This document shows positions 9,050-26,230 of a stretch of DNA of 26,230 nucleotides, piece by piece. Positions within the stretch are counted from its first letter, which is position 1, and every line of letters starts with the position of its first letter. This DNA comes from a virus (taxonomy: Duplodnaviria; Caudoviricetes). The stretch spans positions 1-26,230 of the IMG/VR virus record IMGVR_UViG_3300032221_000476; one strand, 5' to 3'. Made by a program: the position numbers and the translations under genes. A model generated the notes under the pieces. The model was not told the DNA's origin. It searched no databases and worked only from the letters and a program-made list of their open reading frames with translations.

Positions 9050-9361
9050 ATGACAAAATTCATTCCAATAAGAGATCGTCTTCTTGTTAAAAAAATAGAA
9101 GATGATCTTAAAACTAAATCTGGACTTATATTATCAGAAGATACAAAAGAAAGACCAACTAAAGGTACTGTTCTTGCTGTAGGCGAAGGAGCGATAAATG
9201 AGGACGGAAAAATACTTCCAATGGTGATAAAGGTCGGAGATACTGTTCTGTATCCTAAGTATGCCGGACATCCAGTAAAACTTAATAAAGATGAGTATCT
9301 AATATTAGAAGAAAAAGAAGTTTTAGGTATTGTTACAGAGGGAGAAATTGAAAATGTCTAA
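9050..9361 (+). CDS. groES: Co-chaperonin GroES (Cpn10)
   Basis: PIRDRLLVK...KTKSGLIL...GTVLAVGEG...IKVGDTVLYPKYAG...EYLILEEKEVLGIV; 103 aa. Confidence 0.97.
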   Translation: MTKFIPIRDRLLVKKIEDDLKTKSGLILSEDTKERPTKGTVLAVGEGAINEDGKILPMVIKVGDTVLYPKYAGHPVKLNKDEYLILEEKEVLGIVTEGEIENV

Positions 9362-11018: not shown

Positions 11019-11042
11019 AAAAGGCGCTTAAAGCGCCTTTTT
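11018..11042. terminator. Bidirectional rho-independent terminator
   Basis: aaaaaggcgctt-a-aagcgccttttt: GC stem with A-tract and T-tract on either side, between convergent groEL and the tail-assembly chaperone gene. Confidence 0.9.
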
Positions 11043-11044
11043 AC

Positions 11045-11485
11045 TTACTTTGGCTTTACTGGCCAATCAACGTCCCAAGGAAATCCTTCTTGAGCTGTCA
11101 TATCTCTAAGAGCTTGACGGTATTCTGCCCATTCAGTTTTTTGCTTATCTGATAGTCTTGCTTGGGTAACGGGTAGATCAGAAAAATCACTTTCTACTAG
11201 TAGTTTTAAACGCTTCTCTAGAGCAGCTTCTTCGAGTTTATACTGATCTGGGGGAATAGTAATATACCATTCTCCAGAACCGTCACGTACTTTACCAAAC
11301 TTTTCTTCTTTAAGAATTTTATACATTTCTCGTTGGAAGTCATCTTCGGCACGTTCCCAAGCATAAAATTCTACTGGGTTTTTACAACCTTTGAAAAGTA
11401 TAGTACACCAAATAGCATCGACACCCATCATTCCGGCTATTTTTGTGACTTCTACAATATCATCTACTGTAAATCTTTTTGACAT
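11045..11485 (-). CDS. Tail fibre assembly chaperone (Phage_tail_APC/Tfa-like)
   Basis: C-terminus RLKLLVESD...W.EYRQALRDMTAQEGFPWDVDWPVKP is the classic tail-assembly chaperone signature. The N-terminal F.A....D...REMY..L....FG.V is also Tfa-like. Start is probably ATG 11485 (SD GGGAG). Confidence 0.85.
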   Translation of the reverse strand: MSKRFTVDDIVEVTKIAGMMGVDAIWCTILFKGCKNPVEFYAWERAEDDFQREMYKILKEEKFGKVRDGSGEWYITIPPDQYKLEEAALEKRLKLLVESDFSDLPVTQARLSDKQKTEWAEYRQALRDMTAQEGFPWDVDWPVKPK

Positions 11486-11514
11486 AGTATCTCCCAACAT
11501 TAATAAATCACTGT

Positions 11515-12117
11515 TTATTTATACTTATCATTTCTCACGCCTAATCCAGATCTAGAATCATAAGCAAATTTTGGGTAATACGGCCCGTTAACATTAATGT
11601 AATGAAAAAATGCCTGTACTTGGTAACTGCCGGTCCCAGCGTCAAAAACATCTCTCCAGTGGTTAATTTCACATCCTCTATATATTATAGCATCTCCCGG
11701 GTCCTGATTAATAAGAGTTCCGGGCTCAACATACATTCCCCATTTATAATCAGGATCTTTTTGTGTATAATTAAATCCGAAGCATATAGTTGTGCTTATT
11801 TCACAACTTTCTCGATCTCGGTGAATATCAAGTTTCATACCAGGATGATATACACGATAATATGTATAAGTTGGACATAATTTTAATCCTGTGTTTTTCT
11901 CCATATGAGGATGTAAAAAATAAAGCATAGTTTCCATTAATGTATCGCTGTACACTGAATGTGCATTTTCTACTTGAGCTTCTTTTCCAATTTCTGGCGT
12001 AAATTCTGTTTCTTCTTTTAAAAGGGCATACTTGGTAATAATTCTACACAAATCAGTCGGTATCATTTTTTGAACTGCAACGTATTTGTTTTCACTAAAA
12101 AAGTCCGAGTTAGTCAT
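11515..12117 (-). CDS. 2OG-Fe(II) oxygenase-fold protein (phage 'HxDRxSCEIS' type)
   Basis: YYRVY..G..L.IHRDRESCEIS...GDAIIYRGCEINHWR...QAFFHY: HxD...H triad. Confidence 0.75.
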   Translation of the reverse strand: MTNSDFFSENKYVAVQKMIPTDLCRIITKYALLKEETEFTPEIGKEAQVENAHSVYSDTLMETMLYFLHPHMEKNTGLKLCPTYTYYRVYHPGMKLDIHRDRESCEISTTICFGFNYTQKDPDYKWGMYVEPGTLINQDPGDAIIYRGCEINHWRDVFDAGTGSYQVQAFFHYINVNGPYYPKFAYDSRSGLGVRNDKYK

Positions 12118-12902
12118 CTAAACGGAGCTCCTAAACTCCAGCAAACTAAACTGTACCTAGTTCCTCTAGTAATTGGAGTTACTTGATGAGGAATATGAGA
12201 AGGGAATACAATTACTGAGCCTCTTGGTCTGATTTCAGTACATGTGTGAAACCGATCCGAACGATGAGGGCCTAGATCAAATTGTAAATTTCCACCATCG
12301 TATTCTTTTGGATCATTTAAGCTAACAGTAACACTAATCTTTCTTATTTTTCCCATCATTTGGGGATTAGAAGTTTTATTATGATCTTCTGGCATAGTTT
12401 CTCCCATTTGATTATAAAAAGGAGTACCATCAGAATTTTTATGAATTGGATCAACTTCTGGATCAAATGGTTGATAAGGAATTGATGAAGAATCAGTATG
12501 CCAGCCATAAAACTGATTTATTCCGTATTTTGTAAATTGCATATCTTCAGTATAATCCCAATCAAAATTCCACTTGGCACGTTTATTAGCCTCAACTATA
12601 TAGGGCCATACAAGATCGTAAAGTTCAGAATTATTTAAGAATGTTACACTTGAATCTCTAATATAAATGTTATTAAGATCAATACCTTTTTTTACTAAGG
12701 ATTCTGTGGTCTCATGATTTGTTGGTATAGCATTAGTATCTTTATGTTTTTCTTTCCAGCCGCCGGTTGTCCCTATTAGTGCTTCTTCGCCATATTTCTT
12801 TTGTTCATCGAGCATCTTAGTTATACCCATTTCAAGTATTTGATCACAAATAGTTAAAGGTATAGCTGATTGAAAGTACCAATAGTGGTATTCTAATATC
12901 AC
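12114..12902 (-). CDS. 2OG-Fe(II) oxygenase, prolyl-4-hydroxylase/PKHD-like
   Basis: FYGWHTD...RKISVTVSLND..EYDGG.L...GSVIVFPS.IPHQVTPITRGTRYSLVCW: complete HxD...H...RxS set. GTG start overlapping the upstream TGA. Confidence 0.92.
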   Translation of the reverse strand: MILEYHYWYFQSAIPLTICDQILEMGITKMLDEQKKYGEEALIGTTGGWKEKHKDTNAIPTNHETTESLVKKGIDLNNIYIRDSSVTFLNNSELYDLVWPYIVEANKRAKWNFDWDYTEDMQFTKYGINQFYGWHTDSSSIPYQPFDPEVDPIHKNSDGTPFYNQMGETMPEDHNKTSNPQMMGKIRKISVTVSLNDPKEYDGGNLQFDLGPHRSDRFHTCTEIRPRGSVIVFPSHIPHQVTPITRGTRYSLVCWSLGAPFR

Positions 12903-13498
12903 TTAAATAACGCTCCGTGAATATGTCCGACTAAAACATACTTATTTCCCTTTGTAATTGGGGTTATACTGTAAGGAATATAAGAAGGAAAAATCAAACA
13001 AGATCCCTGTTCCTTTAAAAGAGAAGAGTCAGCATTGATATTTAAAAATTCAATATCCCCACCTTCATATTCGTTAGGATCATTTAAATTGATAATAAAT
13101 GTAATTTTTCTAGAAGGAGCCATTAGATTTAATTCCAAATGCATTTTATAGTAATCACCTTCTGAATATTTGAATACTTGAGGAAAATCTTGATCAATAA
13201 TACCTAATAAACTAAAATCATATATTTCGTCGTTTGCACTTTTAGTTACTTCTCTAATATTTAAAAATGGAAATCCTGCTGTATCACCTCTTAATTTTTG
13301 TCTTTTAGACTGATGAAGATTTGAATCTCCGATAACTGTCGATTGCAACCATAATTCTTCAACGCATGTAGATAATATATCTTTACAATCCTCTGTAGAG
13401 AATAAAACAGATTTATTAATTGACATAATTTCTAAAGAAGCTGTTTTTTTTGCTGCGTCTACAGCAGCATCGGTAAAATTACTATCAGTATTTGTCAT
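12899..13498 (-). CDS. 2OG-Fe(II) oxygenase paralogue, P4H/PKHD-like, with degenerate metal triad
   Basis: YYKMHLE...RKITFIINLNDPNEYEGGDIEF...LIFPSYIPYSITPITKGNKYVLV: same fold motifs as its neighbour, but HxE, distal His replaced by Tyr176, and Arg replaced by Lys. Confidence 0.8.
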   Translation of the reverse strand: MTNTDSNFTDAAVDAAKKTASLEIMSINKSVLFSTEDCKDILSTCVEELWLQSTVIGDSNLHQSKRQKLRGDTAGFPFLNIREVTKSANDEIYDFSLLGIIDQDFPQVFKYSEGDYYKMHLELNLMAPSRKITFIINLNDPNEYEGGDIEFLNINADSSLLKEQGSCLIFPSYIPYSITPITKGNKYVLVGHIHGALFK

Positions 13499-13519
13499 AA
13501 AACCCCCATTATTTTCTGA

Positions 13520-13574
13520 TATTTATTGTTAAAAAATCAACTTATTTTTTTTTCAAGCATATGATGGTTAAGTA
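13520..13574. promoter_or_regulatory. Divergent late-type promoter region
   Basis: tatttat at 13520-13526 (ATAAATA on minus) upstream of the 13498 ATG (SD GGGGG). tTAAGTA at 13568-13574 upstream of the 13595 ATG (SD AAGGA). Confidence 0.55.
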
Positions 13575-13594
13575 TTAATATAAAGGAATCAACG

Positions 13595-14197
13595 ATGTCT
13601 AATTTAGAATCTATTATATTACAAAAACCAATACATGTAAATGATAGAGAAAAAGAATTTATAGAAAAGTTTGTATTAGGCCCACATTTTCCTTGGTTTT
13701 GGCAAGATAAACAAACATTCGGTGATGAAGAAAATATACCAAAAGAGATAAAACCTCATATTAAATTTGACAATGGATCTTTTTTAAGTCATACTCTTTT
13801 AATACGAACAGAAGAAGAAAATGTCAAACATACTGAAAGACCTGCTAACGAAGTAAGTTCATATTTTGAATTCTTTCTTGAACTATTTCACAGATTTATG
13901 AGTGAAAATAATCTAAAATATAAAAATATATTTAGAGCTAATTTAAACCTTACATGGCATAATAGCGATTTGCATACAGCTCCTCATTTGGATCATCACT
14001 GGCCACACAACAATTTTATTATGTATCTTACATCATGTGACCAAGGACAAACGATTGTATGGCCTGATGACTTTTCTTACACTTATATGATTCCTAGTAT
14101 TCAATATACAGCAGTAACTTTTAAAGGGCACTGGCACGCTCAAAGATATCCCGCATCAGGATCTAAGAGATTAGTGCTTGTTGTAACATATATATAG
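13595..14197 (+). CDS. 2OG-Fe(II) oxygenase-fold protein ('FPW' phage subfamily)
   Basis: FPWF...RANLNL...APHLD...IMYL...GQT...F...WHA...RLVLV: HxD...H...R. Confidence 0.75.
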   Translation: MSNLESIILQKPIHVNDREKEFIEKFVLGPHFPWFWQDKQTFGDEENIPKEIKPHIKFDNGSFLSHTLLIRTEEENVKHTERPANEVSSYFEFFLELFHRFMSENNLKYKNIFRANLNLTWHNSDLHTAPHLDHHWPHNNFIMYLTSCDQGQTIVWPDDFSYTYMIPSIQYTAVTFKGHWHAQRYPASGSKRLVLVVTYI

Positions 14198-14215
14198 TTA
14201 GAAAAAGGTACTAAC

Positions 14216-15775
14216 ATGGATATAGTTATTGTCGGTGGTGGAACAGCAGGTTGGATTACTGCATTATTAGCAGCAAAAAGACATCCGAATCATAATGTTA
14301 AAGTAATTGAATCATCAAAAATAGGAGTAGTTGGAGTAGGAGAAAGCACTACAGGAAGATTTACCGATGTATTGATGAATATTTTCTATGATTTAGGTTG
14401 TGATATAAATGAATTTATATTAGAAACTGGTGCTACATTAAAGTTTGGGATCAAACACAAAGGATGGACTAACAATATAGATCAATATTATATTGGACCT
14501 ATAGACGGAAGTTGGACAAATACTAGTACTCCTGATCCTTTATTTGCTTGGGGACTTAATAACTTAGATTATTCTAAATTGTTAACAGCTTCGAAATGCG
14601 GATTTTTAACTTATCATGGTATGTCTTCGTTTAATAAACATGTAGGAACTTTTTTAGATCCTAGACAAGCAATGCATGTTGACGCTTACCAAGTAGGCCA
14701 ATATTTTAAAAAGTTATGTCTTAGATGTGCTAACTTAGAATTTATCGACGGAGAAGTTGTAAAAGTTGCTCTCAACTCCGAAACAGGAAATATCGCAAGT
14801 GTTGATTTAAGTGATGATCGAACAATTAATGGAGATATGTTTATTGATTGTTCTGGATTTCATAAGATTTTAATTAATGCGTTAGGAGGTAAGTGGATTA
14901 GTTATCAAAAAAATCTACCTCTTAATACTGCTATTCCTTTTTGGTTAGAATACGAAGATGGTGAAGTTCCGGATATTTCTACTACAGCCTGGGCGCAAAA
15001 AAATGGCTGGATGTGGCAAATTCCGTTAATGGATCGTAGAGGTTGTGGATATGTATTTTGCGATGCGTATACAACCCCAGAAAAAGCACAAGAAGAAGTT
15101 GAAATAATTTTAGGTAAAAAAGTTGATATTCGTAAAGTTATAAAGTTTGACGCAGGAAGACAAGAAAAATCATGGATAAAAAATTGTGTTACTATAGGCT
15201 TAAGTTCTGCTTTTCTTGAGCCATTAGAAGCAACATCAATCCATTCGTCAATTGTACAAGCTCAAACTTTTATATTTGAATTCTTAAAATCCACAATTGA
15301 CGAAACATTAAATGATGGTTCAAGAAATATCTATAACAAAAGAACTAGTAGAATGTATGATGATATCAAAGAATTTTTAATTATGCATTACATGGGTGGT
15401 AGAGATGATAGTGAATTTTGGAAGTATATTAAAACTGGAGTTACTAAAACTGACTATGTGAATGATATATTAGAAATGGCAAAAACTAGAGTTCCTTCAA
15501 TACATGATTTTCCTTCCTATGATGGATCAGCTGGATGGCCACTGTATAGTTATGTAATGGCTGGATTACATCTTATAAGCAAAGAAGCAGCTAAAAAAGA
15601 TTTACAATTAGATTTACCCGATTACGGACCATTAGAACCAATTACTGCTATTACATATTACGATCTACAAGATCAATGGAGGGCAGAATCTACAAATTTA
15701 TATACATATAAAGAATTTATAAATTATTTTAGAAATTTAAGGTACGAGAATGGATTTTCAGATAAAAAATATTAA
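14216..15775 (+). CDS. Flavin-dependent halogenase 1 (tryptophan halogenase family)
   Basis: GGGTAG FAD motif, GVGES, ATLKFGI (catalytic Lys position), FIDCSG, WMWQIP (WxWxIP), FLEPLEATSI. Confidence 0.92.
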   Translation: MDIVIVGGGTAGWITALLAAKRHPNHNVKVIESSKIGVVGVGESTTGRFTDVLMNIFYDLGCDINEFILETGATLKFGIKHKGWTNNIDQYYIGPIDGSWTNTSTPDPLFAWGLNNLDYSKLLTASKCGFLTYHGMSSFNKHVGTFLDPRQAMHVDAYQVGQYFKKLCLRCANLEFIDGEVVKVALNSETGNIASVDLSDDRTINGDMFIDCSGFHKILINALGGKWISYQKNLPLNTAIPFWLEYEDGEVPDISTTAWAQKNGWMWQIPLMDRRGCGYVFCDAYTTPEKAQEEVEIILGKKVDIRKVIKFDAGRQEKSWIKNCVTIGLSSAFLEPLEATSIHSSIVQAQTFIFEFLKSTIDETLNDGSRNIYNKRTSRMYDDIKEFLIMHYMGGRDDSEFWKYIKTGVTKTDYVNDILEMAKTRVPSIHDFPSYDGSAGWPLYSYVMAGLHLISKEAAKKDLQLDLPDYGPLEPITAITYYDLQDQWRAESTNLYTYKEFINYFRNLRYENGFSDKKY

Positions 15776-16400
15776 AGATGAAATTCTCTTAATAGATAAT
15801 ATAGTTCCTAAATCTTTACAGGATTCTATTATTACTAGAGTACAAGGTGATCAACATTTTCCGTGGTTCCTTCTTCATAGAATAGGACATCCAGATCATT
15901 ATGGTATTGGAACAACTCCAGATTATGTTGATCCTAATATTACAGATGATGTTGGATTCTTTCATATGGCTTTTGACGGTGGATCGTATTCTCCGCACTA
16001 TGATTTTTTTAAATCGATATTAGATTTTTTTACAGATAAAACAGGTATAGAAGTTAAAGAAATATTAAGAATTAGATTAAGGTATACACATAAAGGACAA
16101 GGTCATACAGCATTTAAATATGCTGCGCCGCATGTTGACTTTAATACTAATAGCCCATATAATACATTAATTTATTATGTAGACGATAGTGATGGTGATA
16201 CAATTATTTTTAATAAAATTTTTAATACTAACGAAGAAATATACAATCCAGCATTAGCAGATCCGTTACCTGAGTTGTTACGTATAACCCCTAAGAAAGG
16301 AACAGGATTATTTTTTAATGGACATAGATATCACTCTGGAAATTATCCAGTAGAATATAGTTCAAGAATAATAATTAACTTTGATTTTGAAATATTATGA
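15750..16400 (+). CDS. 2OG-Fe(II) oxygenase-fold protein ('FPW' subfamily)
   Basis: IDNIVP...FPWF...RIRL...APHVD...YYVDDSDGDT...PKKG..LFFNG.RYHSG...RIIINFDF. Confidence 0.8.
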   Translation: MDFQIKNIKDEILLIDNIVPKSLQDSIITRVQGDQHFPWFLLHRIGHPDHYGIGTTPDYVDPNITDDVGFFHMAFDGGSYSPHYDFFKSILDFFTDKTGIEVKEILRIRLRYTHKGQGHTAFKYAAPHVDFNTNSPYNTLIYYVDDSDGDTIIFNKIFNTNEEIYNPALADPLPELLRITPKKGTGLFFNGHRYHSGNYPVEYSSRIIINFDFEIL

Positions 16401-17056
16401 CTGAATACCATCCTTATCAAAATTACTTAATTTGTAGAGACAATTATTTTGAGAAACCCCAGGATGTTGTTAAGATGTCTACATCGTTAAATTTTTCTAG
16501 ATCTACATATTATCCTGGAAGAAGAACTGGAAACTTATTAGGATTTGAGGAGCCTGAAATAAAACAATTTGCTGATTGGTTTGCTAATAGAATTAGTCTT
16601 GATGTTTTTCCAGGAATAAGAATGTTTGAATTATTTCTTTGTTTTCATATAAACGATCCTGTAGAGTATCCCTATTATAACAGAGGGTGGATTCATACTG
16701 ATTATGGTAATTTAGCAGGTTTAGTGTATCTTACAGAGAATGAATGTAATTTTGATACAGGAACATCTATTTTTGATCCTGCTCTTGATAATATAGATGA
16801 TATTCAAGAGCTACCTGACGACAAAGAAGCTTTGAAAAACTTTTATCTTCATGATAAACTTACAGAAGAATATGTTATTGGATTTGAAAATAATTTAAAA
16901 TTATTTGAAGATAAAGAAACTATTAGAATAGGAAATAAATTTAATCGACTAATTGCTTATGATTCTAAGTTATGGCATAGACCTAATAGTTTTGTTACAG
17001 AAACAGGTACACCTAGATTATCATTACTTTTCTTTGTTTCACAATTTAATTATTAG
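16397..17056 (+). CDS. 2OG-Fe(II) oxygenase-fold protein (DUF6445-like)
   Basis: DNYFEKP..V...YPGRRT...GWIHTD...AGLVYL...GTS...FNRLIAYDSKLWH...RLSLLFF: HxD...H...R. Confidence 0.75.
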   Translation: MTEYHPYQNYLICRDNYFEKPQDVVKMSTSLNFSRSTYYPGRRTGNLLGFEEPEIKQFADWFANRISLDVFPGIRMFELFLCFHINDPVEYPYYNRGWIHTDYGNLAGLVYLTENECNFDTGTSIFDPALDNIDDIQELPDDKEALKNFYLHDKLTEEYVIGFENNLKLFEDKETIRIGNKFNRLIAYDSKLWHRPNSFVTETGTPRLSLLFFVSQFNY

Positions 17057-17670
17057 GAAAAATTAAAGGCTAAAGATACTCTATCACTGTCGAGATCGTC
17101 AGTTAAATTCTGTTCTACATAGTGTGTTAAATAACTTGGAAATAATATTAAAAGTCCTTCATAAGGTACAAACCAATGTTCACAATTAATTCTATTATTA
17201 TCAACATTCATTCCTTTATTAGATAATACTGATGTAATAAAATTCATTCGATCACATTCTGTATTAGACCTTAAGAAAAATATTTTCCCACTGTTAGTAG
17301 GAATTTTTAAATAAAAAACTCCACTTAGAAAACAGTTTGGATGATTGTGTTCTTGATTATATGAATATTTAGGGTTGATATTATACCAATAACTTACATT
17401 GTTCATATCAGAAGGTAATCCCCATTCTTTAGATATTCTTTTACCTATTGGAATTACTAAATTCTCAAATAATTTCATAGTTTCTAAACAATCATAGTTA
17501 GGAGATTTTAAAGAATGAGATTGATACCCTCCAGCATTACTAAGTTGATTGCCTTTTTGAGTTTGTTTAATAGAATTTACAGATTCAATTATTTTGTTTC
17601 TATCAACATCTTTTAGGTAAGTAGTGTAACATGAAGTTACAAATAAAAGTGTTTCTTGTAGTTCTATCAT
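17053..17670 (-). CDS. 2OG-Fe(II) oxygenase, TIGR02466/2OG-FeII_Oxy_5-like (HxH)
   Basis: WYNIN...NQEHNHP..FLSGVFYLKIP..SG.I.F...P.EGLLILFPSYLTHYV...RVSLAFN. Confidence 0.88.
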   Translation of the reverse strand: MIELQETLLFVTSCYTTYLKDVDRNKIIESVNSIKQTQKGNQLSNAGGYQSHSLKSPNYDCLETMKLFENLVIPIGKRISKEWGLPSDMNNVSYWYNINPKYSYNQEHNHPNCFLSGVFYLKIPTNSGKIFFLRSNTECDRMNFITSVLSNKGMNVDNNRINCEHWFVPYEGLLILFPSYLTHYVEQNLTDDLDSDRVSLAFNFS

Positions 17671-17675
17671 AGGGA

Positions 17676-17683
17676 TATTTATT
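17676..17683 (-). promoter_or_regulatory. Late-type promoter directly abutting a start codon (leaderless candidate)
   Basis: Minus strand reads AATAAATA-TCCCT-ATG, with no SD between the motif and the ATG. Confidence 0.6.
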
Positions 17684-17686
17684 GTT

Positions 17687-19153
17687 ATGAATAAATTAGA
17701 AAAATTTTCCGTAGTAGGCGGAGGAACAGCAGGATTTGTTGCTGCTTTAATTTTAAAGACTAGGTTTCCCGAGATAGAAATTGAAGTAATTCGTTCTAAG
17801 AAAATTGGTATTGTCGGAGTTGGAGAAGGTAGTACCGAACATTGGAATGAATTTATGAATTATATAGGTGTAAACTATCGAACAATTATTCGTGAATGTG
17901 ATTCTACTTTTAAATGTGGTATTATGTTTAAAGGATGGGCAGAAAATGATTATATGCATAGTATCGGTCCAGAAGCAGATTTTAAAAACGGACAATATCT
18001 ATCAATCTATGGCAAGCTAATAGGCGAGGGCTATCCTAATAAATTTTTAAATCCTAGCTATACCTGGGAAAATAAAGTATATCGTGATAGACTAAACCCA
18101 GACGCAGAAACTCCGTGGAATCAATATCATTTTAATACACATAAACTTAATGACTTTCTTACAAAGGTTTCTATTATTAAAGGTATTAAAGTTGTTAACG
18201 ACGAAATACTAGATATAATCATAGACGAAGACGGTAACATTGACCATTTAATAGGTGAAGATAATAATTACTCTTCTGACTTTTATATTGATTGTACAGG
18301 ATTTGCTAAGGCATTAATTTCTAAGTTAGGTGCAAAATGGGAATCTTACGGAAAATATCTCAAGATGAAATCTGCTATTACATTTCCTAATGATGATACT
18401 GAAGAATATAATATGTGGACACTAGCACAAGCAATGGATTATGGGTGGATGTTTACACTTCCGGTATGGGGAAGAAGTGGAAATGGATATATCTTCGACA
18501 GTGATTATATAAGTGTTGATCAAGCTAAAGAAGAAGTAGAAAGATTCTTAGGAAAAAAGATTGAGTTTGGTAAAGCATTTAATTTTGATCCAGGAAAATT
18601 AGATAAAGTTTGGATTAAAAATTGTTGTGCTATAGGTCTAAGTGCTAATTTTGTTGAACCTTTAGAAGCAACATCAATAGGCACAAGTATTCAGCAAGCC
18701 TTTTTGTTAATGCATCGCTTACCGAATTACGATGAAAAAACTATAGAAAAATATAATAAAGATATTAGTGATATTCTAATTAATATCAGAGACTTTGTTA
18801 TATTACACTATGTTACTAAAAAGGATAACACACCATTCTGGAGAGATATTCAGAATATTAAACTTCCCGAAAGTCTTGAAGAAAATTTAAAGAAATGGAA
18901 AAAGAATTTACCTATTGCTGATGACTTTAGAGGAACAACCGATTATAAATTATTCAGTGAAGCACATTACATTCATATTCTTTCGGGTTTAAATTTATTC
19001 AATCGTGATTTGATTAGAAAAGAATATGAAATGATGCATCCTGAAATTAAGAAAAGGGACGATAACTTTCTTAGAGAACTTAGAACTCTTGAAAAAATCC
19101 AACCTACTATCGGGCATAAAGAATTTATATCACATATAAGAAATTCATTTTAG
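17687..19153 (+). CDS. Flavin-dependent halogenase 2 (tryptophan halogenase family)
   Basis: GGGTAG, GVGEGS, STFKCGI (catalytic Lys), YHFN, YIDCTG, WMFTLP (variant of WxWxIP), FVEPLEATSI. Confidence 0.9.
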   Translation: MNKLEKFSVVGGGTAGFVAALILKTRFPEIEIEVIRSKKIGIVGVGEGSTEHWNEFMNYIGVNYRTIIRECDSTFKCGIMFKGWAENDYMHSIGPEADFKNGQYLSIYGKLIGEGYPNKFLNPSYTWENKVYRDRLNPDAETPWNQYHFNTHKLNDFLTKVSIIKGIKVVNDEILDIIIDEDGNIDHLIGEDNNYSSDFYIDCTGFAKALISKLGAKWESYGKYLKMKSAITFPNDDTEEYNMWTLAQAMDYGWMFTLPVWGRSGNGYIFDSDYISVDQAKEEVERFLGKKIEFGKAFNFDPGKLDKVWIKNCCAIGLSANFVEPLEATSIGTSIQQAFLLMHRLPNYDEKTIEKYNKDISDILINIRDFVILHYVTKKDNTPFWRDIQNIKLPESLEENLKKWKKNLPIADDFRGTTDYKLFSEAHYIHILSGLNLFNRDLIRKEYEMMHPEIKKRDDNFLRELRTLEKIQPTIGHKEFISHIRNSF

Positions 19154-19731
19154 TTGTAATTCATTGCTATAGAAATTCTAGGTTCAGTATTTGTTCCAGG
19201 TTCAACTAAATGTCTTAGATATGATCTAAAGATTATTAATGTTCCTGTTTCTGGGGTATATCCTGTACGAGAATATCTTAATTGATTTCTATTTTCTTTA
19301 GTTTTTATAGGACACATATCAGGCTCTTTAGGATCTTCAAATACAATTCTTCCTGATCCTTCTGGAGCACTAACATAGTAAACGGCACTAAAAACATTAC
19401 CATTATGAGCATGAAATTCTTGCCAAGAACTACCTGTAGCAACATTTAACCAAGAATAATTATTTTTGTATGTTTCTTCACAATTATGTGCCCGAGCAAA
19501 TTGATGTATATGATAATTAACTTTATCTAATAGTGATTGACATTCGGGATCGTCATTTAAATTATGAGAAGCATGTGAAGTATAAGTACCTCCAACCCAT
19601 TCTGATCCTCCTGTAGGAATTTTATCATATATAGATAAACAATGTTCTTTCAGTTTATCGTTTTCTTCTTTTGATAAGACATCTTCTTCAAGATAAATTG
19701 CTACAGGAAACCATAGTTCAATTTTTGACAT
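19150..19731 (-). CDS. 2OG-Fe(II) oxygenase, TIGR02466-like (HxH)
   Basis: LWFPVAIY...SWLNV...QEFHAH..VFSAVYYV.AP..SG.IVFEDP...P.TGTLIIFRSYLRHLV...RISIAMN. Start is probably ATG 19731. Confidence 0.88.
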   Translation of the reverse strand: MSKIELWFPVAIYLEEDVLSKEENDKLKEHCLSIYDKIPTGGSEWVGGTYTSHASHNLNDDPECQSLLDKVNYHIHQFARAHNCEETYKNNYSWLNVATGSSWQEFHAHNGNVFSAVYYVSAPEGSGRIVFEDPKEPDMCPIKTKENRNQLRYSRTGYTPETGTLIIFRSYLRHLVEPGTNTEPRISIAMNYN

Positions 19732-20329
19732 CTCTATCCGCCCAAATGTTAAAACCAACTGCTATTCTATCTTCTTCACTGTGATTATGTGTTACAGTAT
19801 GTTGTAACCATGCCTCAAACATTATCATTTCACCTACTATTGGTTCATATTTTACATGGCTAAAATTGTAATCATTTTCTTCTTTTTTAATTCTTTCAAA
19901 GAACGTATTTGTTACTCGACGAGCTTCTAAAGGATTGTGAAAAAGAACGTTGCCAGACTTTTCAGGAACATTTAAGTATAAACATCCACTAATTAACGCA
20001 CCATAATGATCGTGTCTAACAAAATAAGATCCTGGAGGATTATATTGAAGCCATGATGTTATCTCTATGTAACATTTTGGATCGAGTCCTAATATTTCTA
20101 AATATTGTCTTGTTGCTCCATTAATACAATCTAGTAAAGGTCGATCGCCTAAGTTTCCTAGAAAATCTTTATCTTTATAAAATGTAGTTAACAATTCTCC
20201 AGGAGGAGGGTTATCAGCAAAATTAGTATCTTTAATAAACTTTCTAACTAAAAAAATAGAATTATCGATTATTTCTTTGTCTATTGTAAACCTAGCAAGA
20301 GAAATAGGAAAAATATTATTGACTCTCAT
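19718..20329 (-). CDS. 2OG-Fe(II) oxygenase, TIGR02466-like (HxH)
   Basis: IFPISL...SWLQY...FVRHDH..LISGCLYL.VP..SG.VLFHNP...P.VGEMIMFEAWLQHTV...RIAVGFN. Confidence 0.88.
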   Translation of the reverse strand: MRVNNIFPISLARFTIDKEIIDNSIFLVRKFIKDTNFADNPPPGELLTTFYKDKDFLGNLGDRPLLDCINGATRQYLEILGLDPKCYIEITSWLQYNPPGSYFVRHDHYGALISGCLYLNVPEKSGNVLFHNPLEARRVTNTFFERIKKEENDYNFSHVKYEPIVGEMIMFEAWLQHTVTHNHSEEDRIAVGFNIWADRDVKN

Positions 20330-20940
20330 CTCGGCTCCAAATTAATATTAATTATTGCTCTTTTAGTTTCTTCTATTGGATTACTTGCTGTATGATATTG
20401 CAGTCCATTAAACCAAATTAATCGATTAGCTTTTGGAGTAACTCTAGCTTGTGTAGTGAATGTTTCAGGACCGATTGCTGTACCTTTACCAGTATACGTA
20501 CTCCACTCATTAAAAATTCTAGTATCACCATCTGAATCATTTAGATACAGAATAAGAGTTTCATGTGGGTAATAATAATCAACATGTGGCATGTTGTAAT
20601 TATTACTAGTAAAGCCTTGTTTTTGAAATTTTATGCTCATCCTTACTCGAATTAAATGATTTTGAGTAAAGCCTAATTCTTTCTCCATCTTCTGAAATAA
20701 TGGTGTAAGAGTGTTATATGTAAAGCTCTTAATGCTCCATTCTTTTTCAAATACTATATGATGAAACCCCCAAGTTTCCATGGCTAAAGGATCTCTAATT
20801 ACTTCAGCATCGTTTGGATCTATAGAAACATGCTCGCCATAAAACCAAGGAAACTTTTGTCCTAAGACAAATGTAGAAAGTTCGTTAAACTCATCTGTAT
20901 CTAAGAAGTCATCTATTATACATAAACTGCTTTTATTCAT
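20326..20940 (-). CDS. 2OG-Fe(II) oxygenase-fold protein ('FPW' subfamily)
   Basis: IIDDFL...FPWFY...RVRM...MPHVD...YLNDSDGDT...PKANRLIWFNGLQYHTAS...RAIININ. Confidence 0.82.
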   Translation of the reverse strand: MNKSSLCIIDDFLDTDEFNELSTFVLGQKFPWFYGEHVSIDPNDAEVIRDPLAMETWGFHHIVFEKEWSIKSFTYNTLTPLFQKMEKELGFTQNHLIRVRMSIKFQKQGFTSNNYNMPHVDYYYPHETLILYLNDSDGDTRIFNEWSTYTGKGTAIGPETFTTQARVTPKANRLIWFNGLQYHTASNPIEETKRAIININLEPR

Positions 20941-20947
20941 AGTCTAT

Positions 20948-20989
20948 TACTTATGAATTTTTTTAGTCAGATTGAAAAAAATATAAGTA
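20948..20989. promoter_or_regulatory. Divergent late-type promoters (ATAAGTA on both strands), each abutting a start codon
   Basis: tacttat at 20948-20954 (minus: ATAAGTA-ATAGACT-ATG at 20940) and ATAAGTA at 20983-20989 (plus: ATAAGTA-GTTTT-ATG at 20995), with T-tract and A-tract between them. Confidence 0.65.
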
Positions 20990-20994
20990 GTTTT

Positions 20995-22464
20995 ATGAAA
21001 GTAGAAAAATTAGTCATTGTCGGCGGTGGAACTAGTGCTTGGTTAGCGGCCGCTTATCTTCATAACAATCATCCTGCTATTGATATTACCGTAGTTGATA
21101 AGGAAGTAGGAAACTCGATAGGAGTTGGAGAGGCTACGTTACTATCCTTTCTCCCTTTTATGAATGAATGTGGGTTCCAGATAGACGATTGGTTTTCAAA
21201 GATTGATACAGGATACAAGTCAGGAATATTATTCACTAATTGGCGAAAAACTGGAAACGACATCTGGCATCCTTTTTATAAGGGTAATAGAAAAGTTGAT
21301 AAAAACTTTCATCTGTGGGATATTTGGTCTTTAGCACAGGATTTTGATTTTAAAAAATATGTAACAGCATCCTACGAATCTTCTATTATACATAATACTG
21401 TAGATAGTTCTAATTTACATGCATATGCTTATCATGTTGATTGTGGAAAACTTGTTTTGTATATTCAGAATAAACTACAAGATAAAATAAAGATTATTAA
21501 ATCAGAAGTTGTAAATGTTATCAAAACAGATGATACTCATATAGATTATTTGGAACTGAAAAACAGTGATAAAATTAAAGCAGATCTATATGTAGACTGT
21601 ACAGGGTTTCATAGTGTTTTGAGGAAGTCAAAAGAAAGAGTTGATTTACAAGGAAGGTTATTTGTTAATACTGCGGTTGTTTGCCAGGTACCTTATGAAG
21701 ATCGTCCTGAAGAATTTAAACCTTATGCAGTATGCGATGCTGTTGATCACGGGTGGGTATGGAAGATTGGCATTTCTTCAAGAATTGGTAGTGGTATGGT
21801 TTTTAATAGAAACATAACAAATCCAGAAGAAGCAAAAGAATACTTTGTTAACTACTGGAATGGTAGAATTAAGAAAGAAAATGTTCGTGTAATTAACTGG
21901 GATCCTTTTTACAATAAGGATCAGTGGACAGGTAATATAGTTCAAATCGGTTTAAGTGGAGGATTTATTGAGCCTCTTGAAAGTACAGGTGTAGGATTAA
22001 TTACTGTAGGAATTACTCAACTTAGTAATGCTATCTTCGAGCAATGGTATAGCCAGAATGACGTGAATAATTTTAATTCTCAATTAATAACTTTATTTGA
22101 AGATTGTGTTGATTTTGTTAGTATGCATTATGCAGACAATTTAAGAACTAGCAAATTCTGGGAATATGTTAGAAATACATTTGTTCCTTCTGATAGAATG
22201 TTGCATTACCTCGAAGTATTAAAAAACCCAAATGTTAAAGTCCCTGTAGATAGTAAGCACAATTATATGTTCGGTGGAAGTAGTTGGTCTATGTGTCTTC
22301 AACAGTTAGGATACGAAATAACGCCAAGAAATATTCCGTACTCTCAAGAAGAAATAAGGCAAATTATATATGAATACTATGTAGAACATGAAAAAAATAA
22401 ACATGTGTGGTCACGAAAGCACGATTTAGAAATCGATAGAATTAACGAACTTAATAATTTATGA
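20995..22464 (+). CDS. Flavin-dependent halogenase 3 (tryptophan halogenase family)
   Basis: Start is probably ATG 20995 (MKVEKLVIVGGGTSA). GVGEAT, TGYKSGI (catalytic Lys), AYHVD, YVDCTG, WVWKIG, FIEPLESTG (canonical halide-site motif). Confidence 0.92.
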   Translation: MKVEKLVIVGGGTSAWLAAAYLHNNHPAIDITVVDKEVGNSIGVGEATLLSFLPFMNECGFQIDDWFSKIDTGYKSGILFTNWRKTGNDIWHPFYKGNRKVDKNFHLWDIWSLAQDFDFKKYVTASYESSIIHNTVDSSNLHAYAYHVDCGKLVLYIQNKLQDKIKIIKSEVVNVIKTDDTHIDYLELKNSDKIKADLYVDCTGFHSVLRKSKERVDLQGRLFVNTAVVCQVPYEDRPEEFKPYAVCDAVDHGWVWKIGISSRIGSGMVFNRNITNPEEAKEYFVNYWNGRIKKENVRVINWDPFYNKDQWTGNIVQIGLSGGFIEPLESTGVGLITVGITQLSNAIFEQWYSQNDVNNFNSQLITLFEDCVDFVSMHYADNLRTSKFWEYVRNTFVPSDRMLHYLEVLKNPNVKVPVDSKHNYMFGGSSWSMCLQQLGYEITPRNIPYSQEEIRQIIYEYYVEHEKNKHVWSRKHDLEIDRINELNNL

Positions 22465-23186
22465 AAATAATTAATTGGTCATTTATTACTAGTAGTGAAT
22501 TTAATATAGATCACTCTGAATGTGTGAAAGAATTATTAGATAAAAATTTTAATCCTTTTAAAAGTTTGTCTAAGGAAATAATTTCATCTAGAAAGGGATC
22601 TGATTTTTTAAAATGTCCTGCTCATACTGATTTTTTAAAAAACACATTTGTTTTTTGTGCTCCTTTTGATCTTACTATTGAACTAGAAATTGATATAAAG
22701 AATAAATCATTTAGAATTTTTTGTGAAAATATTTCGCAAGAAATTTTCGAATCACTTATAGATATAAGATTTTTAAAAAATCAAAAAAAATTTCCTTTAA
22801 TCGGAATTGATTGGTTAGTTGTATTAACTACAGTTGAGTCGACAATGGTTCAGATATTACCAGCTTTTATGAATTATAATGATTTTACAAGTAAAACTAC
22901 AGTAATTCCAGGTGAATATGATATTAGTAAATGGACTAGACCTGTTGAAACTGTTTTTGAAGTAAAAAATAATTATGAAAAAATTATTATTAAAAAAGGC
23001 GATGCTATATCTTATTTTAAATTTTTAACATCAGATAAAATTAAACTAATTCAATCGCCTACACCATGGAATGAAATTATAGAATGTAACAACTTAGTAA
23101 ATTCTAATAAATTTAGACCTTTAAAAGAACGTTATGAATCTTTAGAAAAAGTAAGGACAAATAAATGTCCCTACTCAAACAATTAA
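22461..23186 (+). CDS. Hypothetical protein (CP-motif, possibly DUF6065-like/beta-clip fold)
   Basis: 241-aa ORF coupled (ATGA) to halogenase 3. Motifs KCPA..D, PFDL, VIPGEYD.SKW.RP, IKKGDAI. The family assignment is tentative. Confidence 0.5.
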   Translation: MKIINWSFITSSEFNIDHSECVKELLDKNFNPFKSLSKEIISSRKGSDFLKCPAHTDFLKNTFVFCAPFDLTIELEIDIKNKSFRIFCENISQEIFESLIDIRFLKNQKKFPLIGIDWLVVLTTVESTMVQILPAFMNYNDFTSKTTVIPGEYDISKWTRPVETVFEVKNNYEKIIIKKGDAISYFKFLTSDKIKLIQSPTPWNEIIECNNLVNSNKFRPLKERYESLEKVRTNKCPYSNN

Positions 23187-24319
23187 TATCTAACTACTAC
23201 GATTCCTGAGCCGCCAGTTCCGCCATGTCCTCCAGATCCACCACCGGTATTATCACCACCATTGCCGCCACCGACGGTAGGATTACATGTTGCTCCATTG
23301 TTCCACGCTTGTCCACCGCCCTCAAATTGTCGACCCGCTACGTTGCCTGTTAATGTATTTTGTGGGTTGGTCGCGTTTTGATTTCCATACGGACCTGCGT
23401 GATGATATCCACCACCACCTCCTCCGCCGATACCTCCGCAATAAGAACCCCAGCCAAGGTGACCACCACCACCTCCACCGCCACCCCAATATAACATTTG
23501 TCCTGTCATATCAGATGCTCTGCCGGCGCCGCCGCAAACTTGATCACTTCTAAAGCTACCTCTATAATTCTGTCTACCATCAGGTGCGGATCCACCGCCG
23601 CCTCCGGCTCCACCGCCGGCGCCGCCGTTGTGAGTGTTTTCAGTATCAGCATTAAATCTTACACCAGATCCACCCGGATATCCTTGGCCTGATACGCTAA
23701 GACCGCCATAACTTCTTATTCTACTATCGGTTCCGTCGCCTGTGTTGGAGCCACCGCCGCCACTTCCTCCAGGACGTCCTGCTGTAGGTGATCCTAATAG
23801 ACCATTTTGTCCTTGTGCCCAAGTTCCACCCTGACCGCCACCAGTTGCTGTAAGAGCACCGAACACTGTATTACTGCCATTTGCTGTTCCAGCACCACCA
23901 CCGCCAACTGTAATCGGAATGCCAGTACCGTTGCTAACAGGATATGAACGACTGCTAATAACGCCGCCACCGCCACCGCCGCCACCCCAGCTTGATCCGC
24001 CGCCGCCGCCGCCAGCGACAACTAGAACGTCTACAGTTCCAGTGAATGTGGGAGTAAATGTATGACCTCCTACTGCTGTAAAAATATGAACTATGCCGCC
24101 ACCGGGTACATAATTAATTTGATTACCACCTGTACCTACAAGGCCTTGGCTAAATCCTGTTACAGGTCTCCAAGTAGTACCGTCAAAAAATTCTAAAGTG
24201 TTTTGTGAGTTCGCACTACTATATCTTAATTTTCCAGTTGCCCCAGAAGTACTTTGAGTATTGTTTGGAGTTAGGATTGTTCCTGTTCCACTAATAGTTG
24301 TATTTCGTAATGTTGCCAT
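23183..24319 (-). CDS. Glycine-rich tail fibre/adhesin-like protein, paralogue A (378 aa)
   Basis: N-terminal fibre-type module (LEFFDGTTWRPVTG), VHIFT..G..TFT, VDVLVVAGGGGGG, many polyglycine tracts, C-terminal GGSGIVVVRY. Confidence 0.75.
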   Translation of the reverse strand: MATLRNTTISGTGTILTPNNTQSTSGATGKLRYSSANSQNTLEFFDGTTWRPVTGFSQGLVGTGGNQINYVPGGGIVHIFTAVGGHTFTPTFTGTVDVLVVAGGGGGGSSWGGGGGGGGVISSRSYPVSNGTGIPITVGGGGAGTANGSNTVFGALTATGGGQGGTWAQGQNGLLGSPTAGRPGGSGGGGSNTGDGTDSRIRSYGGLSVSGQGYPGGSGVRFNADTENTHNGGAGGGAGGGGGSAPDGRQNYRGSFRSDQVCGGAGRASDMTGQMLYWGGGGGGGGHLGWGSYCGGIGGGGGGGYHHAGPYGNQNATNPQNTLTGNVAGRQFEGGGQAWNNGATCNPTVGGGNGGDNTGGGSGGHGGTGGSGIVVVRY

Positions 24320-24363
24320 TTAATCTCTCTTTAATATCTTACTATAACAATACCTGAGCCGCC
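24291..24363. repeat. Direct repeat copy 1 (gene-junction unit; copy 2 at 25439-25511)
   Basis: 73-bp stretch with 3 mismatches, including 42 identical bp (24307-24348 = 25455-25496) spanning stop, 11-bp spacer and start. Confidence 0.9.
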
Positions 24364-25467
24364 GTTTCCTGCTTCGCCATATGCTCCGCCACCACCGCCG
24401 CCAGTATTATCACCAGCATTACCTCCGTGATAATGACTAGCACCACCTGCTCCTGAGTTTAGTGCCATTCCTCCACCTACACTATTAGGTCCATGTTGTG
24501 ATCCAGGATATCTCGGACCACCGTGAGTTTGAGTTGATCCACCACCACCGCCAATTCCACCAGATGCTGCTAATGTACTATTACCGTGATGAATAGAGCC
24601 GCCGCCGCCACCTCCCCAATATAAGGTATATCCCATAATGTCGTTAGCAATTCCAGGGCCGCCGTCTGCTAGTAATCCTTGACGGCAATCGTCCATATGA
24701 CTGAACCCTGGGCCTCCTGCTCCGCCGCCTCCTCCGGCACCATGCATATCCTCGCCTTGACGATTAAATCTAATTCCTGATCCACCTGGAAAACCTTGAC
24801 CGGCAACACCGCGTCCACCCATATTTTTGTTACGACTATCATTAGGTCCGGTATGATTGTTTGATCCTGCGCCATTGCTGCCAGGACAGCCGCCGCCACC
24901 AGAAGCACCAGGACGACCTGCATATCCATCCCATGATCCACCGCCGCCGCCGCCATTAGCTGTGATTGAACCAAATACAGTATTACTTCCAGGAGTTGAG
25001 GACTGTGAATAAGCTGGAGGTCTTGCTGCTGTTCCTGCTACTGTTATACCTATACCCGATCCTGATGTAACTGGAAAAGCACGATTAAAAGTTACGCCAC
25101 CGGCTCCACCTCCAGCACCTAAGTGTCCTCCACCAGAAGCACCACCTCCAATAACTAAAACTTCAACTGTACCGGTAAATGCAGGAGTAAATGTATGAGA
25201 TCCTGCTGATGTAAACATATGAACTACACTATTAGCACGACCAACATTTGATCCGGCAAAAAGAATGGTATTTCCACCTGAGCCTATTGATCCTTTGCTT
25301 ATTCCTGTTACAGGTCTCCAACCTGCATTATCATAATATTCTAAAAGATTATTACTAGTGTTAAGTCTTATCATACCTGGTGTTGGAGATGGTCTAGTGG
25401 AAGTATCACCTTGGGGAAGTCTTAAAAATCCAGTATCGCTAATAGTTGTATTTTGTAATGTTGCCAT
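24331..25467 (-). CDS. Glycine-rich tail fibre/adhesin-like protein, paralogue B (378 aa)
   Basis: LRLPQGDTSTRP...GMIRLNT...LEYYD..WRPVTG, VEVLVIGGG, polyglycine tracts, C-terminal GGSGIVIVRY. Confidence 0.75.
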   Translation of the reverse strand: MATLQNTTISDTGFLRLPQGDTSTRPSPTPGMIRLNTSNNLLEYYDNAGWRPVTGISKGSIGSGGNTILFAGSNVGRANSVVHMFTSAGSHTFTPAFTGTVEVLVIGGGASGGGHLGAGGGAGGVTFNRAFPVTSGSGIGITVAGTAARPPAYSQSSTPGSNTVFGSITANGGGGGGSWDGYAGRPGASGGGGCPGSNGAGSNNHTGPNDSRNKNMGGRGVAGQGFPGGSGIRFNRQGEDMHGAGGGGGAGGPGFSHMDDCRQGLLADGGPGIANDIMGYTLYWGGGGGGSIHHGNSTLAASGGIGGGGGSTQTHGGPRYPGSQHGPNSVGGGMALNSGAGGASHYHGGNAGDNTGGGGGGAYGEAGNGGSGIVIVRY

Positions 25468-25511
25468 TTAATCTCTCTTTAATATCTTACTATAACTATT
25501 CCTGAGCCGCC
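25439..25511. repeat. Direct repeat copy 2 (gene-junction unit)
   Basis: Matches 24291-24363 at an offset of 1148 bp. Confidence 0.9.
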
Positions 25512-26230
25512 TGCTCCATGATAAGAACCGCCACTGCCACCACCGCCTCCGGTGTTAGCTCCGCCATTGCCGCCAAAACGAGCATGACCATCACTGTTTG
25601 TAGAATTACCACCTTGGTTTAATGCTTGTCCACCACCTCGACCATTTCCTAATCCCGGACCATATCCTGGACAAAAGTGAGCAGAGCCGCCGCCGCCTCC
25701 ACCAACGCCGCCGTCGCCGCCTCCGCCGTCGCAAATATGAGGACCACTAGCGCCGCCGCCTCCCCAATATAATACTTCACCGAAAATATCGTGAGCAATT
25801 CCAGGACCGCCGTGTGTAGCTTGTTGTTGATTTTCATCTTGTGAAGCTAGACCAGGACCTCCTGCTCCGCCACCACCACCACCGTTGTGGGTATTTTCAC
25901 CATCGTCATTAAATCTTACACCTGATCCACCTGGAAATCCTTGACCAGTTATGCCAGGACCACCTGCTACTCTAAATCTACTACCGTCTGCAGATGAGTT
26001 ACCACCACCGCCGCCACTTCCTCCAGGACGTCCCGGAGTTGTACTGTCCCAAGTACCGCCTGTTCCTCCGCCTGTTGCTGTTGTAACACCAAAAATAGAA
26101 TTGCCGCCTGCTGTAGCAGAGTTACCAGGACCACCGCCACCGACAGTTAATGGAATACCAACACCAGCAGTAACAGGGTAGGCACGATTATAAATCACTC
26201 CACCACCGCCGCCGCCACCACTCCAACTTG
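25479..26230 (-). CDS. Glycine-rich tail fibre/adhesin-like protein, paralogue C (5' end outside the window)
   Basis: Frame stays open to the window edge (...SWSGGGGGGVIYNRAYPV...), collinear with paralogues A and B, and ends GGSGIVIVRY. Confidence 0.75.
   Translation of the reverse strand, partial: SWSGGGGGGGVIYNRAYPVTAGVGIPLTVGGGGPGNSATAGGNSIFGVTTATGGGTGGTWDSTTPGRPGGSGGGGGNSSADGSRFRVAGGPGITGQGFPGGSGVRFNDDGENTHNGGGGGGAGGPGLASQDENQQQATHGGPGIAHDIFGEVLYWGGGGASGPHICDGGGGDGGVGGGGGGSAHFCPGYGPGLGNGRGGGQALNQGGNSTNSDGHARFGGNGGANTGGGGGSGGSYHGAGGSGIVIVRY

Follow-up and report, generated by a model that had tools for sequence, protein, structure and literature searches.

We analysed a 26,230-nucleotide (nt) stretch of viral DNA (positions 1 to 26,230 of IMG/VR record IMGVR_UViG_3300032221_000476, Caudoviricetes), called the window here, and above all the array of genes at positions 11045 to 26230 (Table 1). 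The window represents part of the genome of a large myovirus, and the array holds, on both strands, ten genes of the 2-oxoglutarate (2OG) dioxygenase fold (O1 to O10), three PF04820 flavin-dependent halogenase genes (H1 to H3) and one gene for a DUF6065-like protein, which together sit between three Gly_rich_2 genes (G1 to G3) and the gene of a PF16778 tail-assembly chaperone. An earlier note on this DNA had reported this contiguous set of enzymes with its flanking chaperone and at least three Gly-rich paralogues, and our Pfam, PHROG and motif searches confirmed all of these genes. The absence of scaffold-building and nucleotide-modification enzymes was likewise borne out: no non-ribosomal peptide synthetase or polyketide synthase, transporter, flavin reductase or nucleotide-modification gene was present among the Pfam and PHROG profile matches of the window, and no precursor of a ribosomally made and post-translationally modified peptide (RiPP) with a leader, nor a protease or exporter, was found among the 25 window genes scanned (open reading frames, ORFs, of at least 60 amino acids, aa). 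Since the array in relatives travels with adhesin tips enriched in proline and histidine, these enzymes likely modify receptor-binding proteins of the phage itself.

Table 1. Genes and promoter motifs of the array, with their positions in the window.
Feature	Position	Strand	Evidence and remarks
Tail-fibre/adhesin assembly chaperone	11045..11485	-	PF16778 E 3e-14, phrog_4912; ORF may start at 11500
O1, 2OG-fold dioxygenase, Syn9 gp54 family	11515..12117	-	phrog_2954 E 7e-41 (label 'ferrochelatase'), HRD motif
O2, PKHD-type / prolyl-hydroxylase-like 2OG dioxygenase	12114..12902	-	PF13640 E 3e-13; PRK05467 below cut-off; active-site motif complete
O3, O2 paralogue, putative conserved pseudo-enzyme	12899..13498	-	PF13640 E 3e-9; without distal His and 2OG Arg
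Divergent late-type promoter motifs, ATAAATA for O3 and TTAAGTA for O4	13513..13576		Similar pairs at ~17676 and 20948/20983
O4, 2OG-fold dioxygenase	13595..14197	+	phrog_274 (label 'DNA endonuclease V'); HLD...H...R
H1, flavin-dependent halogenase	14216..15775	+	PF04820 E 3e-89; GxGxxG, Lys76, WMWQIP
O5, 2OG-fold dioxygenase	15750..16400	+	phrog_274 family
O6, DUF6445 dioxygenase, Syn9 gp52 family	16397..17056	+	PF20043 E 7e-8; phrog_1644
O7, TIGR02466 / 2OG-FeII_Oxy_5	17053..17670	-	HxH...H
H2, flavin-dependent halogenase, WMFTLP variant	17687..19153	+	PF04820 E 5e-92
O8, TIGR02466 / 2OG-FeII_Oxy_5	19150..19731	-	HxH...H
O9, TIGR02466 / 2OG-FeII_Oxy_5	19718..20329	-	HxH...H
O10, 2OG-fold dioxygenase	20326..20940	-	phrog_274 family
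H3, flavin-dependent halogenase, WVWKIG variant, canonical FIEPLESTG	20995..22464	+	PF04820 E 1e-81
DUF6065-like protein, predicted dUTPase-like fold, invariant Cys52, Syn9 gp43 counterpart	22461..23186	+	
G1, Gly-rich adhesin-like protein, predicted Pam3 gp24 / gp38-like tip	23183..24319	-	PF21722 E 4e-9, phrog_2295
G2, Gly-rich adhesin-like protein	24331..25467	-	PF21722; Atlas Gly_rich_2 / PTL_trimer clusters
G3, Gly-rich adhesin-like protein, cut by window end	25479..26230	-	358 aa in the parent record; weak fold likeness to Pam3 fibre

The three halogenases all keep the GxGxxG motif and the catalytic Lys. The tunnel motif (Fx.Px.Sx.G) is canonical in H3 and takes the form of an EPLEATS variant in H1 and H2, while the WxWxIP motif is canonical in H1 only (motif definitions from PMC8407142). 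The start of H3, which had been put at 20953, was corrected to 20995. The MibH-type structure 5uao is a homologue, and of the full-length matches MibH is the most distant (E 1e-27, compared with E 3e-51 for PrnA).

The ten 2OG-fold genes fall in five PHROG families; six of them lie at or above a Pfam cut-off and two below, and O1 and O4 were assigned by PHROG family and motif only. The HxD/E...H triad and the 2OG-binding Arg are present in O2, O4, O5, O6 and O10, and O1 has its HRD motif plus a later His, with the 2OG Arg not placed. In O3 a Tyr replaces the distal Fe-binding His and the 2OG Arg is absent, with identical losses in 10/10 of the orthologues listed, so that at most nine of the oxygenases look active. 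Judged by these residues, O3 is a conserved, catalytically dead paralogue of O2; it is translationally coupled to O2, of which it is possibly an (obligate) partner. No match to a JmjC (MINA/NO66) member of the Syn9 gp49 kind was found in the window, such genes being a variable member seen in the cyanophage copies only. The PHROG labels carried by O1, O4, O5, O6 and O10, namely 'ferrochelatase' (2954), 'DNA endonuclease V' (274) and 'minor coat protein' (1644), look like mis-annotations, given the 2OG-dioxygenase motifs of these proteins.

The gene following H3, which the earlier note had called an orphan, does have a family: it belongs to phrog_17480 and is DUF6065-like and Syn9 gp43-like (BLAST E 0.002 against Syn9 gp43). 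PF19541 was matched by one of 50 aligned homologues, and Cys52 is invariant across these 50 sequences. The model of the protein is beta-rich and confident (predicted local distance difference test score, pLDDT, 92), and a halogenase adjoins the homologue in 56 of 101 distinct cases.

The array is likely, from its promoter motifs, a late transcription unit. The exact T4 TATAAATA was found once, at 11516, upstream of the chaperone gene, and the window has five copies of ATAAATA, all of them 13-38 nt upstream of a start and in sense orientation, some before wedge and neck genes. The pattern WTAARTA, picked from the window and scored in 20 related loci, precedes 62/86 divergent operon leaders compared with 27/195 inner genes and 6.5% of random windows; because the loci are related, these counts indicate conservation and not 86 independent events. 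It was also present in 50/59 of the wedge/neck intergenic regions of related loci. The late-type promoters announced for this array were therefore upheld, as a TATAAATA-like box before operon leaders which is common to wedge/neck structural genes. These motifs, and the location among tail genes, argue against a role of the array in the modification of DNA or tRNA bases. Such a role would fit the base modifiers known among 2OG dioxygenases (PMC2938197) and the predicted dUTPase-like fold of the DUF6065-like protein, but the dUTPase matches of the latter are weak (E 0.02-0.3), its invariant residue is a Cys and the window has no match to the TET/JBP, AlkB or nucleotide-pathway families, which makes nucleic-acid modification very improbable.

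G1 to G3 are three paralogues of 358-378 aa with Gly_rich_2 matches. Together with the chaperone they are predicted to resemble Pam3 gp24/gp25, which serve as structural model of a Gly-rich receptor-binding tip and its chaperone (PMC9608196), and S16 gp38, in combining a TNF-like beta-sandwich and a glycine-rich domain with variable distal loops and a chaperone of ~150-160 aa. The Pam3 fibre is the top fold match of the tips, although a weak one, and the three window paralogues differ from Pam3 in having no match to solved structures: a search of these by sequence with the tips and the chaperone gave nothing significant. Those parts of PMC9608196 that treat gp24 mention no modification of it. 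The Trp-bearing tail of the chaperone was considered as a halogenase target and rejected. With all chaperone families pooled, Trp is present in the last 35 residues of 94/110 halogenase-linked chaperones, and it is not specific to them since enzyme-free chaperones also carry it (26/26).

The earlier note had taken the array for a new system, a claim that does not stand: the same kit, in the Syn9 array, was published in 2010 (PMC2938197), and our array is a Syn9-type member of a kind known since then. Iyer et al. (2010, PMC2938197) described the Syn9 cluster, in which ten dioxygenases are joined by two tryptophan halogenases and by a protein that has the dUTPase fold and a conserved Cys. The likeness to Syn9 gp41-gp54 extends to the ten dioxygenases of several families, the tandem halogenases and the Cys-bearing dUTPase-fold gene, to the PHROG families 2928, 2954, 274, 1644 and 81, common to both, and to the Gly-rich genes and chaperone-like gene that adjoin the Syn9 array. 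The window array differs in belonging to a jumbo-phage clade, in its three halogenases, in having no JmjC (MINA/NO66) gene and genes on both strands, and in its two PKHD-type genes (one apparently inactive) and its insertion between adhesins and chaperone. In the account of Iyer et al. of this cluster (PMC2938197), as far as it covers Syn9, the array was not linked to fibre genes. The halogenase VirX1 is from the Syn10 copy of a Syn9-type cassette; Syn10 has orthologues of Syn9 gp38, gp41-42 and gp43 (PMC7238727, supplement).

Published proposals for such genes favour small molecules: enzymes that halogenate or hydroxylate free amino acids or host metabolites, as auxiliary metabolism. Secondary-metabolite synthesis was proposed for Syn9 (PMC2938197), S-CREM1 PrnA was read as a host-metabolism gene giving antibiotic protection (PMC9964418), and such phage genes were attributed to host metabolism through 2OG/nitrogen control (Sullivan 2010, PMC3037559). 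Small arenes are substrates of VirX1 in vitro (PMC8407142), solitary phage halogenases are found among tRNA and metabolic genes, and bacterial homologues sit with a TonB-dependent receptor, SapC, Cupin_8 and DUF6445. We consider this explanation rather unlikely, as the window has no scaffold enzyme or transporter, close relatives vary freely in enzyme content, and neither the insertion between adhesin and chaperone, nor the joint swapping with the tip, nor the enrichment of Pro and His in the tip is predicted by it.

Precedents for proteins as substrates also exist. The RiPP halogenase MibH, NO66/MINA53, which hydroxylate His (PMC9994133, PMC6006756), and the prolyl hydroxylases show these folds acting on peptides, while the window differs in having no leader peptide, protease, exporter or NO66-type gene. 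In bacterial operons, collagen-like or tail-collar proteins were proposed as dioxygenase substrates (Iyer et al. 2010, PMC2938197). The beta-hydroxylase/sulfotransferase operons among these resemble our array in that co-encoded Gly-rich or collar proteins are the proposed substrates; they differ in being bacterial, with other dioxygenase families and no halogenase in the proposal, which, like our own, is a hypothesis. A 2OG oxygenase was found in one virion proteome (PMC6224464, PMC12801897). No report of halogenated or hydroxylated phage adhesins was found in a literature search that left most subscription papers outside, and the main text of PMC9964418 does not name a Gly-rich ORF among the 14 detected S-CREM1 proteins.

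We then compared neighbourhoods at 157 halogenase loci (the best 80 from each of two profile scans, minus the window's own record and one repeat), with genes labelled by local hidden Markov models and composition. Among the loci listed, a Gly-rich gene was present at 94 of 157, at a median distance of 1.9 kb, and it lay within 7.5 kb at 37 of the 50 viral loci with full 7.5-kb flanks. Clustering of the full-flank loci left a Gly-rich neighbour in 24/35 clusters at 70% identity, 16/25 at 60% and 6/10 at 50%. At 5 kb, such a neighbour was found at 37/69 of the halogenase loci listed compared with 1/23 gp15 loci of the jumbo clade; a halogenase was present in 6/27 gp15-anchored records, which are mostly fragments. 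In the window's clade, the array always lies between the Gly-rich triplet and the chaperone, with three to six halogenase matches per record and a variable oxygenase content. The 13 full-flank misses include loci L261 and L267, with His-rich triplets that resemble C1q heads (no Pfam match; E 4e-5 to a C1q-positive protein), and L377, with a tail-collar pair. At these three loci and at L096, which also has C1q-like triplets, His-bearing tips replace Gly-rich tips beside the same enzymes.

Thirteen of the 70 isolate records with a halogenase, picked by hand, were examined. In Syn9, S-RIM44, S-SRM01, S-CREM1 and S-WAM1 the halogenase is next to an adhesin gene or to the gene of its chaperone; in P-SSM2 it is next to fibre-assembly genes, in DSL-LC01 it comes after collagen-like genes, and in S-SSM7 and HTVC008M the Gly-rich genes are 7-8 kb away from it. 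In a whole-genome search, Gly_rich_2 was above the cut-off in 8/13 records, all eight complete genomes, 6/8 of which have a halogenase within ~8 kb (in genomes of 147-233 kb), and a homologous cassette is common to 4/6 of these isolates. The tblastn searches of isolates with Gly-rich queries were run with low-complexity masking and matched only close copies or an N-terminal stretch. In S-SRM01 (L564, 4923-7504), a single halogenase lies between a tail fibre and a gp38-like adhesin with a loop carrying five Trp among Cys. No dioxygenase is near this halogenase, which makes S-SRM01 the cleanest halogenase test case, and its loop is the only obvious Trp-rich one.

The S-RIM44 records exhibited a joint exchange, in which three Gly-rich tips, two halogenases, a DUF6065-like gene and six dioxygenase genes are replaced by a different tip and one dioxygenase. 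The Gly-rich tip was matched by the five records that have three halogenase places and by none of the four that have one; in isolate KX349297 the same slot is occupied by another tip, of 294 aa, together with a 121-aa gene and a single dioxygenase. Joint swapping is also predicted if the enzymes alter the host receptor bound by the adjoining adhesin (superinfection exclusion or progeny protection) and are inherited with an adhesin that they leave untouched. Sister cassettes with heptosyltransferase-like, ADP-heptose, carbamoyltransferase and sulfotransferase genes, typical of surface-glycan work, and the outer-membrane receptors flanking the bacterial homologues agree with such receptor masking. 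We nevertheless hold it to be rather unlikely: superinfection exclusion is usually early, and late-type promoters fit it poorly; FADH2- and 2OG-dependent enzymes are cytoplasmic; and an enrichment of Pro and His in the adhesin itself is not predicted. Joint decay was also considered, at a locus (G050/L107) whose halogenase, DUF6065-like and Gly-rich genes are each fragmented, by decay or by assembly error, and was set aside as uninformative because the flanks also consist of short ORFs.

The composition of the non-Gly residues of the Gly-rich domain was compared between 61 halogenase-linked and 20 enzyme-free clusters for 14 residues. The content of His was 2.6% in halogenase-linked tips versus 0.2% in enzyme-free tips (p 5e-6), and that of Pro was 8.0% versus 2.9% (p 1e-6). 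Gln and Arg were also higher and Thr, Ala and Val lower in halogenase-linked tips, while Asn and Asp did not differ. Overall, the tips contain little Lys or Arg. Among 59 enzyme-bearing loci, tip Pro was 10.1% with a PKHD-type gene and 5.2% without (33 vs 26 loci, p 2e-6), and tip His was 4.5% with a DUF6065-like gene and 1.8% without (19 vs 40, p 0.003) and 4.0% versus 2.4% with and without a NO66-like gene (p 0.1). A tree of the tips, built with His and Pro masked, requires 7-8 changes of the enzyme label. This enzyme-specific signal bears on a further explanation, that unrelated accessory enzymes without a common substrate hitch-hike in a recombination hot spot by the tail fibres. The slot is hypervariable, with many gene types in both directions, and tips of other phages function without enzymes; the same enzyme families recur, however, at adhesin genes of jumbo myoviruses, T4-like cyanophages and smaller phages, and the clade keeps the gene order and the pseudo-enzyme, so that mere hitch-hiking is improbable.

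On balance, we favour the view, predicted from the genes, that the cassette modifies the phage's own Gly-rich tail-tip adhesins late, in the host cell, mainly by hydroxylation of Pro and His together with halogenation. Modification of nascent tips in the cytoplasm is the simplest reading since it joins the placement, the joint exchange, the late promoters and the Pro/His signal. The open active site of VirX1 (PMC8407142) also speaks for it. The tips would be modified in the host cytoplasm before or during chaperone-assisted assembly. PKHD-type enzymes include prolyl hydroxylases, and O2 and its like would hydroxylate Pro of the polyglycine stem and loops, with O3 as an inactive partner. Further dioxygenases would act on His, Asn or Asp of the distal loops, perhaps together with the Cys-dependent DUF6065-like protein, and the halogenases would halogenate a few Trp, Tyr or His side chains there, with FADH2 presumably supplied by a host reductase, as the window encodes no flavin reductase. 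The likely benefit would be a tip that binds its receptor or metal differently, or that differs in stability.

Several observations weigh against this view. The modification of virion proteins is a prediction made from genes, and the adhesin fold is deduced from family labels together with a model of low confidence (pLDDT 51; top match the Pam3 fibre, E 0.049). The earlier note had put the emphasis on aromatic residues; it is His and Pro that are enriched in enzyme-linked tips, and the usual halogenase targets, Trp (p 0.55) and Tyr (p 0.9), are not. The halogenase target is the weakest step, an obvious Trp-rich loop being seen in S-SRM01 only. As to composition, 66 enzyme-by-residue tests were run on the enzyme-bearing loci, and the tests are not phylogenetically independent, the supported independent pairs being two or three, too few for significance. 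Tip Pro falls with locus GC (rho -0.68) and hence tracks lineage; codon bias does not explain the Pro signal, but lineage may. Solitary halogenases lie away from tail or adhesin genes in S-PM2, S-H38, Syn1 and S-H35, and no Gly_rich_2 match above the cut-off was obtained in a whole-genome search of S-PM2, S-H38 or Syn1. A Gly-anchored scan started from an enzyme-free sequence gave a halogenase at 0/22 loci and a dioxygenase at 2/22, and the jumbo slot of L472 holds six tips and the chaperone with no enzyme. The adhesin link that the earlier note had expected across phages consequently held in part: the coupling recurs in unrelated phages, with joint exchange in S-RIM44, but it is not universal, given the solitary halogenases and the enzyme-free tips. 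Bacterial relatives, lastly, adjoin TonB-dependent receptors (3/3 of the large neighbours tested), SapC, Cupin_8 and DUF6445 and not Gly-rich genes. At the 75 bacterial loci, the tandem halogenases and DUF6445 of the proteobacterial TonB receptor - SapC - Cupin_8 - tryptophan halogenase - DUF6445 clusters recall our array, whereas no Gly-rich adhesin (apart from one uninspected call), chaperone or DUF6065-like gene was called there.

In other relatives, the same slot is filled by different tips and by different enzymes that modify proteins or surfaces. Cys-rich tips are accompanied there by carbamoyltransferase, GT9-like and ADP-heptose genes, and proteins ending in Cys/His repeats by radical S-adenosylmethionine (SAM)/SPASM genes; further slots hold a sulfotransferase and an adenosine phosphosulfate (APS) kinase, or nothing. 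We consider it plausible, though somewhat short of an even chance, that aquatic tailed phages carry interchangeable tip-tailoring cassettes that hydroxylate and halogenate their own receptor-binding proteins after translation, with the enzyme type matched to the tip chemistry. The matching would be PKHD-type enzymes to Pro, DUF6065-like and NO66-like proteins to His, halogenases to Trp, Tyr or His, and radical SAM enzymes to Cys/His repeats. If so, viral halogenases such as VirX1 would have tip tailoring as their natural function, and host range would have a layer that the adhesin sequence does not show; halogenated or hydroxylated virion proteins would be a new host-range determinant, and protein-acting halogenases would be available as tools. 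Phage halogenase and 2OG dioxygenase genes are commonly read as host-metabolism genes, and this reading would change for thousands of aquatic phage genomes if tips are the substrates. The analysis yields residue-level predictions that can be tested on cultured phages: Pro with PKHD-type enzymes, His with DUF6065/NO66-like proteins and Trp in S-SRM01.

The slots of L137 (4882-10431), L199 (16502-18138) and L177 (10542-14084) contain several radical SAM/SPASM and B12 radical SAM genes, and small proteins beside them end in Cys/His repeats (CHxSCHxSCH; CxC repeats); these slots are a candidate second tip-tailoring chemistry. Carbamoyltransferase, GT9-like transferase and ADP-heptose enzymes accompany a Cys-rich variant of the Gly-rich tip (L213, L018, L105, L202 and L328), whether or not a halogenase is present.

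The parent record (L001/G001) is 32 kb long with a completeness rating of 9%, from which the genome would be that of a jumbo phage. Beyond the window, this record supplies the rest of G3 (358 aa in full), followed by an S74-type fibre, a 108-aa gene and a gene for a large structural protein. Upstream of the array, the window encodes baseplate connector and neck proteins, a long gp15-like gene, NUDIX, GroES and GroEL, and it has no Rfam match to an RNA family. The phage GroES and GroEL genes (9050-11018) adjoin the chaperone gene, a place kept in most close relatives, and their products may help to fold cassette products or tips. The 1489-aa protein encoded at 448-4917, with beta-propeller-like repeats and a weak SBBP match, is probably a large virion appendage. 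A short hairpin flanked by A and T runs lies at 11018-11045, between the convergent groEL and chaperone genes, and is likely a two-way terminator.

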